The translations under genes and the position numbers were made by a program. 64,000 bases of DNA from Alphaproteobacteria bacterium (lineage in GTDB: Bacteria > Pseudomonadota > Alphaproteobacteria > UBA2966). Position 1 is the first letter of the stretch. Every line of letters starts with the position of its first letter. Under the pieces are notes generated by a model. The model was given only the letters and a program-made list of their open reading frames with translations, did not search any database and was not told the DNA's origin. Of the stretch, positions 14,082-19,857 are shown piece by piece. The stretch is from NCBI GenBank assembly GCA_964291395.2, contig OZ219858.1, forward strand, positions 960,001-1,024,000, written 5' to 3'.

Positions 14082-14870
14082 CTAGTGGACGTCTCTCCAG
14101 ACTTTACGCTTGACCATGTAGAGGAGCACGGTCATCAGCACCAGAAAGACCATCACCTTGATGCCCATCCGCTTGCGTGCCTCCATGTCGGGCTCGGCCG
14201 CCCAGGTCAGGAACGTCGTGACGTCCCGCGCCATCTGGTCGACGGACGCCTTCGTGCCGTCCGCATATTCGACACCGTCCTCGAGCAGGGGCGGCGGCAT
14301 GGCGATCTGGCCGCCGCTGAAGTAGGGGTTGTAGTCCATCCCCTCGCCCAATTCGACGTCAGCGGGCGGGTCCGCGTAGCCCGTCAGCAGCGAATAAACG
14401 TAATCCTCGCCACCGGCGCGGGCCTTGACGATCAGCGACAGGTCCGGCGGCAGTGAGCCGTTGTTGGCCGCTCTCGCCGCATTGTCATTGGCGAAAGGCG
14501 CCGGAATGAAGTCGGAGAGAACGGCCGGCCGCTCGAACATCTCGCCTTCCTCGTCGGGGCCGCCCATGACCTCGTACTGGGCGGCGATGGCCTTGGCCTG
14601 CACCTCGTCAAAGCCGATGGACCGCAGATTGCGGAAGGCGAAGTACTTGAGCGAATGACATGCCGAGCAGACTTCCTGGTAGACCTGGAAGCCCCTCTGG
14701 AGCTCGCCCCGGTCATAGGTGCCGAACGGTCCCTGGAACGAGAAACCGGGCGACTTCGGTGCCTCGACATCTCCCGCTGCCATCGAGGGTCCGGCCGTCA
14801 GGAGCGCCACGCAGGCGGCGGCCACGGCGAGCGTCGGCCGCACGAAGGTCACGGGGCGTCGACCGGTCAT
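14082..14870 (-). CDS. petC: Cytochrome c1
   Basis: Signal peptide, [28 protein letters not shown]-terminal TM helix; ATGA overlap with petB. Confidence 0.97.
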
Positions 14871-16117
14871 GGCGCGCCCTCCTTCGCCGTATCCGCCCCG
14901 CCTCCTTTGTCGAGGACCGATGTGGCGATGGAATCGGGCAACTGCCGTGGCGTCTCGAACCAGCCGACGAACGGCATGATGATGATGAAATGCAGGAAGT
15001 AGTATGCCGTCGCCAGCTGGCCGATCAGGATGAAGTAGCCCTCGGGAGGATTGGCGCCGACCCACCCGAGAATCAGGATGTCGGCCACCAGGATCCAGTA
15101 GAACTGCTTGTAGATGGGACGGAACGTCGCCGACCGCACCCGGGACGTGTCGAGCCACGGGATCAGGAACAACACACCGATGGCCGCCCCCATTACGACG
15201 ATACCTCCGAGCTTGTCCGGTATGGCCCGCAATATCGCGTAGTACGGCAACAGGTACCATTCGGGCACGATGTGCGGCGGCGTCTGCAGCGGATTGGCGG
15301 GAATATAATTGTCTGGATGCCCTAGGTAGTTCGGGTTGTAGAACACCCAGTAGGCGAAAATGATCAGGAACAGGCCCAGGCCGAACAGGTCCTTCACCGT
15401 GTAGTACGGATGGAAGGGGAGGGTGTCCTGCGGACCCTTCACGTCGATGCCCGTGGGGTTGTTGGATCCGTGCGTGTGCAACGCCCAGATGTGGACGATG
15501 ACCACGCCGGCGATGACGAAGGGCAGGAGGTAGTGAAGGCTGTAGAAGCGCTGCAACGTCGGGCTGTCGACCGCGAAGCCGCCCCACAGCCAGGTCACGA
15601 TGGGCTCACCGATCAGGGGGATGGCCGAGAACAGGTTGGTGATCACGGTGGCGGCCCAGAAGCTCATCTGGCCCCAAGGCAAGACGTAGCCCATGAAGGC
15701 CGACGCCATCATGAGCAGCATGATCGCAAGTCCGATCCACCACAGGAGTTCGCGCGGGTATTTGTAGGAACCGTAGTACAGGCCGCGGAAGACGTGGATG
15801 TAGACTACGAGGAAGAACATCGAGGCGCCGTTGGCGTGGATGTAGCGAATCAGCCAGCCGTAATTGACGTTGCGCATGATGTGTTCGACGGAATCGAACG
15901 CCATGTCCCCGTGCGGCACATAGTGCATGGCGAGCACGATGCCCGTCACGATCTGGATGACGAGTGCGACTCCCGCCAGGGAACCCATGTTCCACAGGTA
16001 GTTCAGGTTCTTCGGAGCGGGATAGCCCGAGCCGACGGTATGATCGAGCCAACTGAAAATCGGCAGCCGATATTCGATCCACTGAACGATCCGGTTGCCG
16101 GAACCGGGAGAACTCAT
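14867..16117 (-). CDS. petB: Cytochrome b
   Basis: ATG at 16117; [22 protein letters not shown]. Confidence 0.98.
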
Positions 16118-16127
16118 ATGGGGCTCC

Positions 16128-16676
16128 CTAGCCGATTTTGATGGTGGTGTCGGAGAGGAATTCGTATGGCGGGACCATAAGGTTCTCAGGAGCCGGTCCC
16201 TTCCTGATTCGGCCCGACGTATCGTAATGCGAGCCGTGACATGGGCAGAACCAGCCGCCGAAATCGCCTTGTGGATCGGTGGCCTTCTGGCCCAGCGGCA
16301 CGCACCCGAGATGGGTACAGACACCGACCATTATCAGCCATTTGTCCTGCTGGACCCGATCCTCGTCAGCCTGCGGGTCTCGCAGGTCTTCGACAATCAC
16401 GTTGCGCGCCGCCTCGATCTCGGTGGCCGTGCGATGGCGAATGAAAACGGGTTTGCCCCGCCATAGGACCGTGATGGCCTGACCCTCCTTGACGGGAGAC
16501 AGGTCCACCTCCGTCGAGGCGAGGGCCAACACGTCGGAAGAGGGATTCATTTGGTCGATGAGGGGCCATACCGCTAGCGCGGTTCCGATACCGCCGAAGG
16601 CTCCCGTTGCGATGTAAAGGAAATCGCGGCGGCTCGCATCGTCTCCGTGTCCGCCGCCGGACGTTGTCGTCGACAT
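16128..16676 (-). CDS. petA: Rieske iron-sulfur subunit of the bc1 complex
   Basis: SRRDFL Tat motif, CTHLGC, CPCHGS. Confidence 0.98.
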
Positions 16677-16802
16677 ATGACCAAACCTGCCAATTCGTGC
16701 GAAATGCGCGCCCTTTGTCTCAAAAATCCTCCGCCTTGTCCAGAGCGTGCAAGGTGTCGATTTCCAGGTTCGGACTCCGGCGAATCGGATACAGTTGGAG
16801 AC

Positions 16803-17042
16803 ATGCGTCTCGCCGTCTTCGAACCCGACATGCCCCGGAGCTTGGATGCCACGGCGCGTCTCGGCGCCCGTCCGGATATTCCGCTCGACGCCGTCGGCCC
16901 GTGCGGTTTTCCCATCTCGGTGGCGGCGCGCTCGCTCGACGTCGTCGTGGCCGTCGGCATGGCCTCGGGGGGAGCATTGCGTCAGACGGGCGGGTTCGCG
17001 CGGCGCGAGGAATTCCCTGGTCTGGAAAAGACGACGCCATGA
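16803..17042 (+). pseudogene. trmL: Internally deleted, decayed tRNA (cytidine/uridine-34 2'-O)-methyltransferase TrmL
   Basis: 79-aa frame joins a TrmL N-terminus ([14 protein letters not shown]...GPCGFP) directly to a TrmL C-terminus ([16 protein letters not shown]); GGAG RBS; expected position between petA and hemF. Confidence 0.8.
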
Positions 17043-17893
17043 CGCTCCCGACCGAAGATCGACGGAATCACGCCGCCAACTGGTTTCGTCAGTTGCGGGA
17101 TGACATCTGCGCGGATTTCGAGAGACTGGAGGACGTCTATGGCGGACCGTTGTCCGACCGGCCGGCTGGCCGGTTCGAGCGGCGGGAGTGGTCGCGCGGC
17201 GGGGATGGCGGCGGCGGCGTGATGTCGATCATGCGCGGCCGCGTCTTCGAAAAGGTTGGCGTCAACGTCTCGACCGTGCACGGCGAGTTCTCGGAGGAGT
17301 TCCGCGACAGCATCCCGGGGGCCGAGGAGGACCCGCGATTTTGGGCGGCCGGCATATCGCTGGTGGCGCACATGCAGTCTCCTCACGTGCCGGCGGTGCA
17401 TATGAATACCCGGCACATCGTGACCACGAGAGCATGGTTCGGCGGCGGCGCCGACCTCACGCCGGCGGTTCCCAACGACACGGATGCGCGGGAATTTCAT
17501 GCCGAACTGAAGAAGGCCTGTGATTTCCATGATCCCACCTACTATCCGAGCTTCAAGCAGGCCTGCGACGAGTACTTTCATCTGACCCATCGCGACGAAC
17601 CCCGAGGGGTGGGCGGTATTTTCTTCGACTATCACGACACCGGCGACTGGATGACGGATTTCGCCTTCACCCGGGACGTCGGTCTCGCCGTCAGCGAGGT
17701 CTTTCCGCGCATCGTGCGCCGTCATATGAACAAGACCTGGACCAGGGAGGAACGCGAGCATCTGCTCGTCCGCCGCGGACGCTATGTCGAATTCAACCTG
17801 TTGTACGACCGCGGCACTCAGTTCGGTCTGAAAACGGGCGGCAACGTCGAGGCGATTCTGATGTCGCTGCCGCCCGAGGTGAAATGGCCGTGA
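17039..17893 (+). CDS. hemF: Oxygen-dependent coproporphyrinogen III oxidase
   Basis: [55 protein letters not shown]. Confidence 0.97.
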
Positions 17894-17957
17894 GCGCGTC
17901 AGCCAGGGCGGAAGCCGAGCTGGAATTGTCGGGGGAGACGGCTCAGGGGCGCAGGGC

Positions 17958-19127
17958 ATGACCGGACTCACATACGAAGACTCGCCCGTCGCGGTCCGGG
18001 AGGGGCTGGCCATCGCGCACCGGCACGCTTGGCGGCGACTTGCCGCACCCGGGACGTGGTGGAGCGGGCCGACGCGGGTGGCGGTCGCCGCCGAGGTGCG
18101 GAATGCTGCGGCCTGCGGGCTGTGCCGGCGGCGCAAGGAAGCTCTGTCGCCCTATACGCTCGGCGGAGTCCACGACAGCCTGGGATCGCTGCCCGAAAGC
18201 CACGTCGACGTGATCCACCGGATCGTCACCGACCCGGGGCGGCTCAGCAAGACCTGGCTGGACGACGTTCTGGCGAGCTGCCTGAGCGACGCCGAGTATG
18301 TCGAGACCGTCGGCGTCATCGTCAATGTCATGGCGATCGACCAGTTTCGCCGCGGCATCGGCATGGCGCCCGCGCCGCTGCCCGAGTCTCTTCCCGGCGA
18401 GCCCATGCGGGTGCGTCCCCGGGGCGCCAAGCCCGGCGCCGCCTGGGTGCCGCTGCTGGCGCCGGAAGATGTCACCGAGGCGGAGGCCGACCTCTACCCC
18501 GACGTGCCCTTGATCACCTACGTGCAGCGGGCGCTGAGCCTCGTACCCGAGGAGGCCCGTGCCTACAACGCCATCGGCTGCGAGCAGTACACGCCGACGG
18601 GCGCGAGCTGGGACTTCGAGAGCCGGATGCGCGAGATCAGCTACCAGCAGATCGAGCTCGTCGCCTCGAAGGTCTCGGTCCTCAACGGATGCTTCTACTG
18701 AACGGCCGGCCATTCGGCGAGGCTCCGTGAGAGCCTGAGGCGTGACGGCCGGGACAGCGACCTTCAGATCCTCGTGGACGTGTCGTCGGACGACGGGGCG
18801 GTGCCGCACGCGGCTCTGCTCGTCCGCTTCACCGAGGCCTTGATCACCGGTGACGGCGCGGCGCTGGATGCCGCCCGCGAAGAGATCGTCGAGAGGATGG
18901 GGGCAGGCGCCCTGGTCGATGCCGCGGGCGTCGCGGGCGCATTCGAGGGCTTCACCCGCATCGCCGACGCCATCGGCATTCCGACGGAAACGGTCAAGGT
19001 CGAGATGACGGAGGACTTCCGGGCCGGACTCGGCGCCGATTCGTTCACCGGCGCGCGGAACGTCGGCGACGCGCCGCTGCGCGCGGACGCCGAGGCGGCC
19101 TATTGGGGCACCGCGCGGGTGAAGTAA
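17958..19127 (+). CDS. AhpD/carboxymuconolactone-decarboxylase-like selenoprotein (389 aa; Sec at TGA 18699-18701)
   Basis: ORFs 17958-18701 and 18774-19127 are in the same frame with only one stop between them; readthrough gives VLNGCFY-U-TAGH, the AhpD CxxCxxxH motif; SECIS-like hairpin follows. Confidence 0.85.
18706..18752 (+). promoter_or_regulatory. Putative bacterial SECIS element
   Basis: Upper stem AGGCTC (18720-25) / GAGCCT (18731-36) with loop CGTGA starting 25 nt after the UGA; lower stem CCGGCC (18706-11) / GGCCGG (18747-52). Confidence 0.75.
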
Positions 19128-19191
19128 GGCATCCGTGTGCGGCCTGGATTCTCGGGACCGTGTGTCCACCCCCTCCGGTGAAGTCAGGCGC

Positions 19192-19857
19192 CTACAGCGT
19201 GATTTCACGGCGGTCGTAGGCGCGTCGCCACTTGCCGTCGAAATCCTCGTCGAAGACGAATGCCTCGTCCGTGGTCGCGGTGACCCAGGCCTCGCGGTCA
19301 AGCTCGGATTCGAGCTGCCCCGGCGACCAACCGGCATAGCCGAGCGCCAGGATGCTCTTGCGCGGCCCCTCTCCCCTGGCCAGGGCGCGCACGAGATCGG
19401 CGTCCTCGCCCGGCGTCATGGCGAACACGTCGTCGACCAAGACCGTGTGCTGGCCGACGTAGTCCGGGGTGTGCAGGACGAAGCCGCGCCCGAAATCGAC
19501 GGGTCCGCCAAAATGGATGCGGATGGTGCGGCCGCTCGACTCGATCGGCGGCTCCCCCTCGAGCCGCAGCTTGCTGACGGGCTCCACGCCCAGCACCTTG
19601 TTGATGATCAGGCCGAAGGCGCCCTGCTCGTCATGTGCGACCATGTAGATCACGGACTCCTCGAAACGCGGATCCGACATGTCCGGTGCCGCGATCAGCA
19701 GCTGGCCGGTCAGGAACTTGGGGTGAGGCGCGCTCCTCGGGTCCTGGTCGGCCGACGCCAGAGGCGGAATTGCTGGCGCGAGGAGGCAGACGGCGCCGGC
19801 GACCGTGCCGGCGATCACCGCACTCCGCACTCCCGTCCGTGGTCCAACCCGTGCCAT
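19192..19857 (-). CDS. YqgE/AlgH family protein with a signal-peptide-like N-terminus
   Basis: GQLLIAAPDMSDPRFEESVI, GAFGLIIN, GGPV, GFVLH, LGYAGWSPGQLESE. Confidence 0.9.
   Translation of the reverse strand: MARVGPRTGVRSAVIAGTVAGAVCLLAPAIPPLASADQDPRSAPHPKFLTGQLLIAAPDMSDPRFEESVIYMVAHDEQGAFGLIINKVLGVEPVSKLRLEGEPPIESSGRTIRIHFGGPVDFGRGFVLHTPDYVGQHTVLVDDVFAMTPGEDADLVRALARGEGPRKSILALGYAGWSPGQLESELDREAWVTATTDEAFVFDEDFDGKWRRAYDRREITL

Follow-up and report, generated by a model that had tools for sequence, protein, structure and literature searches.

A predicted AhpD-related selenoprotein split by standard gene calling in an alphaproteobacterial genome

Does the in-frame TGA that separates two short open reading frames (ORFs) in this stretch of DNA end a gene, or does it encode selenocysteine (Sec) within a longer one? 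The stretch, hereafter the window, comprises 64,000 nucleotides (nt) of an alphaproteobacterial genome (contig OZ219858.1, positions 960,001 to 1,024,000), and the locus in question lies on its forward strand at 17958-19127. Standard gene calling gives a first ORF of 247 amino acids (aa) at 17958-18701 and a second of 117 aa, starting from GTG, at 18774-19127. The initial annotation had proposed that these are fragments of an AhpD-like CxxU selenoprotein gene carrying a Sec insertion sequence (SECIS) hairpin, and the Sec machinery, the homologs, and the hairpin all agree with that proposal. We consider it very probable, from the sequence evidence set out below, that 17958-19127 is a single gene coding for a 389-residue selenoprotein in which UGA is decoded as selenocysteine with the help of a SECIS element, and that the product is a predicted two-lobed redox protein of a family that is already catalogued.

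Reading frame and homologs across the UGA codon

The TGA at 18699-18701 (+) stands directly after ...NGCFY and closes the 247-aa ORF, as had been described. The same frame stays open past it (TAGHSARLRESLRR...), runs through the 18774 ORF, and ends at a TAA at 19125-19127, so that translation with TGA as U gives 389 codons plus TAA, with the predicted Sec as U248 in C245-F-Y-U248-T-A-G-H252; the length and end point are those first reported. GC content at third codon positions (GC3) is 0.891 in frame upstream of the TGA and 0.887 downstream, compared with 0.743 and 0.529 for the two alternative frames downstream of it, and this match on either side of the TGA indicates that coding carries on in the same frame. 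Homology likewise extends beyond the TGA in the match to the family hidden Markov model (HMM), in a nine-sequence alignment with 17 invariant columns downstream of the Sec column, and in a profile alignment to the solved AhpD-core structure 6k40, which spans profile positions 165 to 328 and crosses the Sec column. What is called as the second ORF is the C-terminal remainder of the AhpD-core domain begun in the first ORF, not a separate gene.

A genuine stop at this UGA, yielding a 247-aa protein and perhaps an independent 117-aa protein from the GTG at 18774, is what standard ORF calling gives, and public gene calls also shorten the gene. A 5.8-billion-protein collection contains 928 related proteins at E values up to 1e-10 among 8000 scored, and 118 of the best 120 homologs are called equally short, at 231 to 285 aa, ending in C-x-Y (116 proteins) or GCFV (2 proteins) just short of the Sec column. 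The lack of any recovered RNA contig across the UGA would also fit a stop. However, termination here would cut one AhpD-core domain and therefore leave half a domain, severed between the CxxC-type motif and the essential His with the later helices. The invariant columns, the GC3 values, and the family HMM all extend over both parts, and no purine-rich Shine-Dalgarno-like stretch was seen by eye upstream of GTG 18774, in keeping with the earlier remark that this ORF lacks a ribosome-binding site. Moreover, full-length Cys forms of the protein exist, two among the best 120 database homologs (P0023, CRFC...H, and P0075, CAFC...H) and two more in named metagenome-assembled genomes (L047, CVYCASGH, and L048, CFYCSAGH). 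A related-locus search that back-translated the Sec column as Cys, and thus covered Cys forms only, gave five loci, two of them full-length relatives. We regard a genuine stop as very unlikely. The gene is most probably a real selenoprotein that ordinary ORF calling splits, and catalogues built from such calls under-count the family and carry it as a shortened 'hypothetical protein.'

Homologs had been expected to hold TGA or Cys at this column with similarity continuing past it, and they do. Among 61 close relatives (the source genome included) there are nine above-cut-off matches in six genomes, each with exactly one TGA, and an even sample of the class (401 genomes) has 34 matches in 21 genomes, again every one with exactly one TGA. 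When the samples are pooled (three matches are common to both sets), all 40 intact above-cut-off copies, from 24 genomes, have one TGA each, and the TGA column, C-x-Y-U-T-x-x-H, is identical in the 36 of 36 copies that were read at the DNA level. An even phylum sample has the family in none of 400 other genomes, which shows rarity at the phylum scale only. Paralogs reach up to three per genome, and genomes with paralogs include G008, G011, G487, G644, and G763; G011 has a tandem pair separated by 68 nt (L027, 1501-2547 and 2616-3656), both members having a TGA and a hairpin of their own. The most divergent members, L068 and L069 (from genomes G684 and G539), have 29 to 34% identity but keep CFYUT, with a variant hairpin (UUCCUC-CGUGA-GAGUGGA), and together may form a subfamily without the second, N-terminal site described below.

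Within the genus itself the gene appears patchy and in the course of being lost, since one copy has decayed and three genomes (G001, G002, and G004) have no above-cut-off copy. The decayed copy, in G003 (C45:63074-64105, L031), has the Sec TGA and an extra TAG, and its match falls into three pieces. This shows that decay occurs in the lineage, and would be compatible with reading the TGA in the window as a misassembly or a recent nonsense mutation, and the gene as a pseudogene. Against this stand the single TGA in all intact homologs, its fixed column, the constrained hairpin that follows it, and its retention in two independent metagenome assemblies, and we consider a pseudogene extremely unlikely.

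These assemblies come from sequencing runs. The 31-mers of the gene are present, at half or more of the sampled words, in 12 runs, of which nine are labeled sponge metagenome, one coral reef, one marine, and one 'organism A'; this suggests that the source organism is sponge associated, and the family occurs in sponge-, coral-, and marine-associated communities. Contigs of four runs were mapped onto the gene. DNA contigs from two studies differ from it at 9 and 10 positions, with the TGA and the apical hairpin unchanged. RNA-library contigs cover 17700-18561, 18892-19059, and 19062-19300 (run X19) and 17718-18012 and 18357-18519 (run X20), and are not counted as proof of transcription because such libraries may hold DNA. 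We also note loose contig ends at 18680-18713 in runs X19, X2, and X3, in which a short match is joined to unlike flanks; these derive from another family member in the same communities, and their downstream sequence is the SECIS variant of L068 and of the G003 copy (UUCCUCCGUGAGAGUGGAC). One such contig, in RNA library X19, runs past its own TGA.

The downstream hairpin and the selenocysteine machinery

The predicted SECIS element occupies 18706-18752 (+), with a lower stem (18706-18711/18747-18752), an apical stem (18720-18725/18731-18736), and a CGUGA apical loop (18726-18730). The UGA-to-loop spacing is 24 nt and the 5-nt loop begins at the 25th, so that folding reproduces the two-stem hairpin and CGTGA loop as originally drawn. 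Folded by itself, 18706-18752 has a minimum free energy (MFE) of -25 kcal/mol (z = -2.45; 4 of 200 shuffles are as stable), with an internal loop between the stems. The bacterial SECIS (bSECIS) model, as given in the Fig. 2 legend of PMC13188914, has a loop of 3 to 9 nt, an upper stem of 4 to 16 bp, a G in the first two loop positions, a distance of 16 to 37 nt from the UGA, and an MFE of at most -7.5 kcal/mol. Checked by hand, the hairpin lies within every one of these limits, with a 5-nt loop, G at position 2 followed by U, a 6-bp upper stem, the 24-nt spacing, and an MFE of -25.

Conservation of the hairpin, a point on which the proposal could have failed, is evident in the apical part, through both covariation and synonymous constraint. 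The alignment consists of 34 gap-free sequences of 66 nt from the UGA, and L057 and L073, which have the same pattern, were added afterwards. In the apical stem (columns 22-27/33-38) 93.6% of cells are paired, and with one extra pair included the value is 87.8%, as against 34.5 to 50.0% when the 3' side is slid by one to three columns. The covariation score of this stem is 0.185, compared with a shuffled mean of 0.106, and was reached by none of 500 shuffles; compensatory changes convert pair 22-38 from CG to AU in four sequences and pair 23-37 from UG to GC in three. In the loop, every sequence has G29, and conservation of C28, U30, and G31 is 90% or higher. Because the hairpin overlaps conserved codons, codon choice within it was set against that in the remainder of these genes: for Leu, CTC is used in 33 of 33 cases (26.9% elsewhere), for Arg, CGT in 30 of 33 (10.4%), and for Ser, AGY in 34 of 34 (42.8%). 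As judged from these codon counts, the synonymous constraint in the hairpin is selection on the RNA. The Cys-form loci L047 and L048 have no hairpin, with four of the six apical pairs and no CGUG loop.

The genome (three contigs, 4.16 Mb) carries the machinery that decoding of this UGA would use, all four of the sel genes that had been proposed as a check being present. Side by side on contig C1 are selA (573.6 bits), selB (425.6 bits), and the tRNA-Sec gene selC (70.7 bits), all above cut-offs, with the tRNA anticodon given as tca by ARAGORN; selD (309.6 bits) lies elsewhere on C1. The window is on contig C3, and although a contamination figure of 9% is attached to the assembly, C1 and C3 represent one organism, since their GC contents (64.0% and 63.8%) and tetranucleotide profiles (correlation of 0.9994) agree. 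The proposed sequence of events is that the hairpin at 18706-18752 would act as a bacterial SECIS during translation, such that SelB and Sec-tRNA(UCA) decode the UGA at 18699-18701 as selenocysteine with no stop.

We note that the selD match (G000:C1:2560694-2561611) sits in an 867-aa open frame. In the relatives L061, L070, and L071, a pyridine nucleotide-disulfide oxidoreductase domain (TIGR03169, 'Nterm_to_SelD') precedes SelD in the same chain; this is the Ndh-SelD fusion of the Global Ocean Sampling (GOS) paper (PMC2398784).

The family and the machinery also occur together. In the class sample selA is present in 55 of 401 genomes, and 21 of 21 carriers of the family have selA while 0 of 346 selA-less genomes carry the family, counts to which no P-value is attached because related genomes are not independent. 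It is present in 21 of the 55 selA-positive genomes and is one of the commoner selenoproteins of this bacterial class. This distribution bears on the idea that the UGA is read through as a residue other than Sec, such as Trp or Cys, by near-cognate or reassigned decoding. The inserted residue cannot be told from sequence alone, and Cys forms of the family work without Sec. Nonetheless, hemF just upstream has a TGA as its own stop codon (17891-17893), evidence against genome-wide reassignment, while the Sec system is complete, the family is confined to selA-positive genomes, and the hairpin fits the SECIS model. Insertion of a non-Sec residue is therefore highly improbable, and we favor selenocysteine.

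Lobes, catalytic residues, and predicted function

The complete catalytic signature, E233-x11-C245-x-Y247-U248-x3-H252 (18654-18713, +), lies in a C-terminal AhpD-core lobe at approximately residues 159-352 (18432-19013, +), supported by VIA-align and the Pfam CMD match. Across a 37-sequence alignment no substitution is seen at E233, C245, U248 (aligned as C), or H252, and conservation of Y247 is 90% or higher. Their spacing equals that of Glu74, Cys86, Tyr88, Cys89, and His93 of 2PRR, as numbered in PMC4674687. The family profile matches solved AhpD-core structures, with 6k40 at E = 2.8e-15 and 2pfx, 3c1l, 2oyo, and 2prr at 1e-12 to 1e-10.

An AlphaFold2 model built from the 37-sequence alignment has a mean predicted local distance difference test (pLDDT) score of 90.7 and a predicted template modeling (pTM) score of 0.90. 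Its best whole-chain structural match by VIA-align is human Sestrin2 (5t0n_A; Z of 16.7, root mean square deviation [rmsd] of 3.2, with 239 residues aligned over model residues 1-342). The C-terminal lobe of the model (159-352) aligns to 6k40_A with a Z of 13.7 and rmsd of 2.8 over 176 residues, and to 2oyo, 2prr, 3c1l, and 6e8l with Z of 12.4 to 13.5. A Foldseek search of the PDB gave nothing at E up to 0.001, the best match being 6k40_A at 8.3e-3, and the Z-scores come from re-alignment with VIA-align.

The N-terminal helical lobe, at approximately residues 14-135 (17997-18362, +), appears from its model and structure search to be a diverged AhpD/CMD-like unit. When it is modeled alone (residues 1-150, pLDDT 92.3), the eight best matches among 48,161 representative chains are, without exception, AhpD, CMD, or Sestrin structures, at Z of 4.7 to 7.8, a range common for helical models. 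Comparison of the two lobe profiles with hhalign is weak (probability 23%, P = 8.8e-4) and places C53-x-x-C56 on C245-x-x-U248. We read the protein, on the strength of these models, as a tandem of two AhpD-type lobes in one chain, resembling Sestrin2, which PMC4674687 describes in its structural account as a duplicated 2PRR-like monomer. The second CxxC near the N terminus that had been pointed out, C53-G-L-C56 (18114-18125, +), lies in this lobe. Together with H72 and H87 its cysteines are at least 90% conserved, all four being lost together in L068 and L069 among the 37 sequences, and the conservation pattern suggests a possible second site, redox active or metal binding.

The AhpD-core catalytic set is complete in the C-terminal lobe, where Sec would take the place of the second dyad cysteine. 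By analogy with AhpD-type chemistry, the U248 selenolate would attack a hydroperoxide or disulfide, C245 would then resolve the product to a selenenylsulfide, and some reductant would regenerate the enzyme. We infer that the protein is a selenol/thiol oxidoreductase. A peroxide or thiol reductase function is plausible from the conserved catalytic residues, and whether the activity is hydroperoxide reduction specifically is, in our judgment, an even bet.

A different role, in the handling of selenium or another chalcogen or metal, is suggested by gene location. Such a protein might reduce or traffic selenium species towards SelD, with the N-lobe CxxC and two His as an additional redox or metal center. 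Proximity to selA (∼6.3 kb at most) or immediate adjacency to selD or selB is seen for a copy in 9 of the 20 other carriers of the class sample. By coordinates, eight carriers (G747, G562, G723, G699, G625, G467, G487, and G763) fall within this distance of selA; among the loci, selD adjoins L055, L061, L070, and L071, and selB adjoins L062. The strong conservation of C53, C56, H72, and H87, and their joint loss, would also fit. On the other hand, in its own genome the gene is on a different contig from selABCD, and the catalytic set is that of AhpD-type oxidoreductases. Selenoprotein genes often adjoin sel genes through shared inheritance or transfer, and the linkage may reflect no more than this. 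Selenium handling is, in our judgment, unlikely. Equally speculative is the fuller picture of the family as bacterial Sestrin-like two-lobe selenoenzymes in which the N-lobe CxxC/His/His center recycles the C-lobe Cys-Sec pair, with a job tied to selenium handling (reduction and delivery to SelD, or protection of the Sec pathway) rather than to general peroxide detoxification; we think this unlikely. If true, a role in selenium handling would explain retention of the family in so many selA-positive genomes and its frequent seat beside selA, selB, and selD.

Several observations weigh against a single-gene redox selenoprotein, in addition to the non-independence of the carrier genomes. No RNA-library contig bridges the UGA and those recovered flank it, although an uncovered stretch is no evidence either way. 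A wider, 81-nt fold is unremarkable (z = -0.77; 41 of 200 shuffles), and for this reason the hairpin is not proven by the single sequence, and the comparative data carry the proof. The lower stem is paired in 56.7% of cells across the 34 sequences. The hairpin also overlaps L-R codons whose residues recur in the non-Sec protein 6k40 and in the Cys forms P0023 and P0075, and its conservation is thus in part protein driven. At gathering thresholds no Rfam family matched anywhere in the window, a result that is uninformative on the hairpin. As to function, the Pfam CMD domain (PF02627) barely passes, at 23.5 bits against a cut-off of 23 (residues 227-258), and no peroxiredoxin or other redox partner adjoins the gene in the window or occurs among the neighbors scanned at 34 other loci.

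The lower stem was considered as a family-wide feature and dropped on its pairing value; it is kept as a feature of this sequence alone.

Genomic setting and relation to known families

The gene hemF (16607-17893, +) lies 64 nt upstream on the same strand, and co-transcription with it is possible. It codes for the oxygen-dependent coproporphyrinogen III oxidase, with the Pfam domain beginning at residue 158 of the listed ORF. Farther upstream is a minus-strand cytochrome bc1 operon (14082-16676), with the Rieske Fe-S protein at 16128-16676, cytochrome b within 14867-16324, and cytochrome c1 within 14082-15587; the ORFs as listed overlap because, in this high-GC genome, each is drawn from its earliest possible start. 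Downstream are an AlgH-like gene and a PCMT methyltransferase. Scans of 16400-19500 gave no promoter-like sigma-70 site, and the search for intrinsic terminators gave terminator-like sites near 16700 alone. Two long ORFs run antisense to the selenoprotein gene and hemF (17943-19337, 464 aa, and 16982-18136, 384 aa, both on the minus strand), have no Pfam match, and are most likely spurious open frames typical of DNA with 64 to 70% GC.

These neighbors are not conserved. A polyprenyl synthetase gene precedes the same-genus copy (86% identical), and the hemF context is absent in homologs. Our neighbor survey took the four longest stop-to-stop frames per locus within ∼1.5 kb at 34 loci, giving 134 flanking ORFs after 2 of 136 that overlap the second paralog in L027 were left out, with short genes and anything beyond 1.5 kb outside its scope. 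It showed no conserved partner beyond closely related genomes except the sel genes. The initial annotation had looked for novelty in the partners of the protein, and this is not borne out by the survey.

It had also looked for novelty in the multi-domain form, which proves to be the normal full-length architecture of a known family. Scored with NCBIfam equivalog NF041238 (AhpD_rel_CFYUT, 'alkylhydroperoxidase-related (seleno)protein'; model length of 357), the read-through product reaches 450.5 bits, against a cut-off of 175, with protein residues 13-364 aligned to model positions 1-356 of 357, and a six-frame search of the genome gives 442.1 bits with '1 TGA' inside the match. The NF041238 motif, C-F/x-Y-U-T with Sec or Cys at the fourth position, is present as CFYUTAGH at residues 245-252. 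TIGR01926 falls short of its cut-off, at 31.7 bits against 81.8, which places the protein outside that subfamily. According to a table in a 2026 review (PMC13188914), the NF041238 family corresponds to the 'hypothetical protein 1' that the Sargasso Sea selenoproteome study reported in 2005. In the latter paper (PMC1088965), four sequences that share a conserved CXXU motif make up this new selenoprotein family, and the legend of Figure 3 gives a predicted SECIS for it. PMC13188914 was the only match to 'NF041238' in a full-text literature search. Going by that table, the passages of PMC1088965, and the NF041238 entry, which between them cover the family, its Sec residue, and its SECIS, all three are already known: they are in print and in the NCBI annotation rules, and the family has been catalogued since 2005.

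The kind of protein is thus known regardless of the additions made here, namely, a predicted two-lobe Sestrin2-like architecture, an N-lobe CxxC with two His, the lack of a conserved neighbor among the loci surveyed, and frequent adjacency to sel genes elsewhere. These are handles for a first biochemical study, and what the locus still offers is the question of function, together with a build reminiscent of Sestrins and the association with sel gene clusters.

Among known systems NF041238 is the closest, and the protein is a member of it, sharing the full-length HMM match, the C-x-Y-U-T motif, the Sec column, and the downstream SECIS hairpin. It has ∼42 to 50% identity to most members and 86% to the same-genus copy, and nothing distinguishes this member, although the neighbors of the family elsewhere differ from the hemF and bc1 genes found here. 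The C-terminal lobe is homologous to the single-domain AhpD-core 'peroxidase-related' proteins (TIGR01926; 6k40, the Deinococcus radiodurans AhpD, with 2prr, 2oyo, 2pfx, and 3c1l). These are one-lobe oligomers of ∼185 to 197 aa with a Cys-Cys pair, whereas the protein described here has 389 aa, an added N-terminal lobe, and Sec where they have their second Cys. The AhpD of Mycobacterium tuberculosis (1gu9/1knc) belongs to the same superfamily and has a CxxC-xxx-H active site, but is distant, with a profile E value of 0.0049. With a length of 177 aa, it acts together with AhpC and lipoamide enzymes; no AhpC-type neighbor occurs here among the neighbors scanned.

Other AhpD-type selenoproteins have been listed in marine surveys. 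'AhpD-like 1' (COG2128) and 'AhpD-like 2' (pfam02627), as they are entered in the GOS and Sargasso Sea papers (PMC2398784 and PMC1088965), have in common with the present family a CxxU in an AhpD/CMD-type fold and an occurrence in marine and environmental bacteria. In its table, PMC13188914 keeps the AhpD-like protein (TIGR01926) and the CMD-like protein (PF02627) apart from NF041238.

The closest architectural parallel is Sestrin2 (5dj4, 5t0n, and 5cuf). At 8 to 9% sequence identity in the structural alignment this is an architectural resemblance and not family membership, and the Sestrin (PA26) domain is absent from a Pfam scan at E up to 0.1, in which CMD is the sole match. Both proteins would be single chains of two AhpD-like lobes with the full oxidoreductase motif in one lobe only, as the structural description in PMC4674687 has it for Sestrin2. 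In Sestrin2, however, the active lobe is N-terminal and has a single Cys, whereas here the complete motif lies in the C-terminal lobe, with a predicted Cys-Sec dyad.

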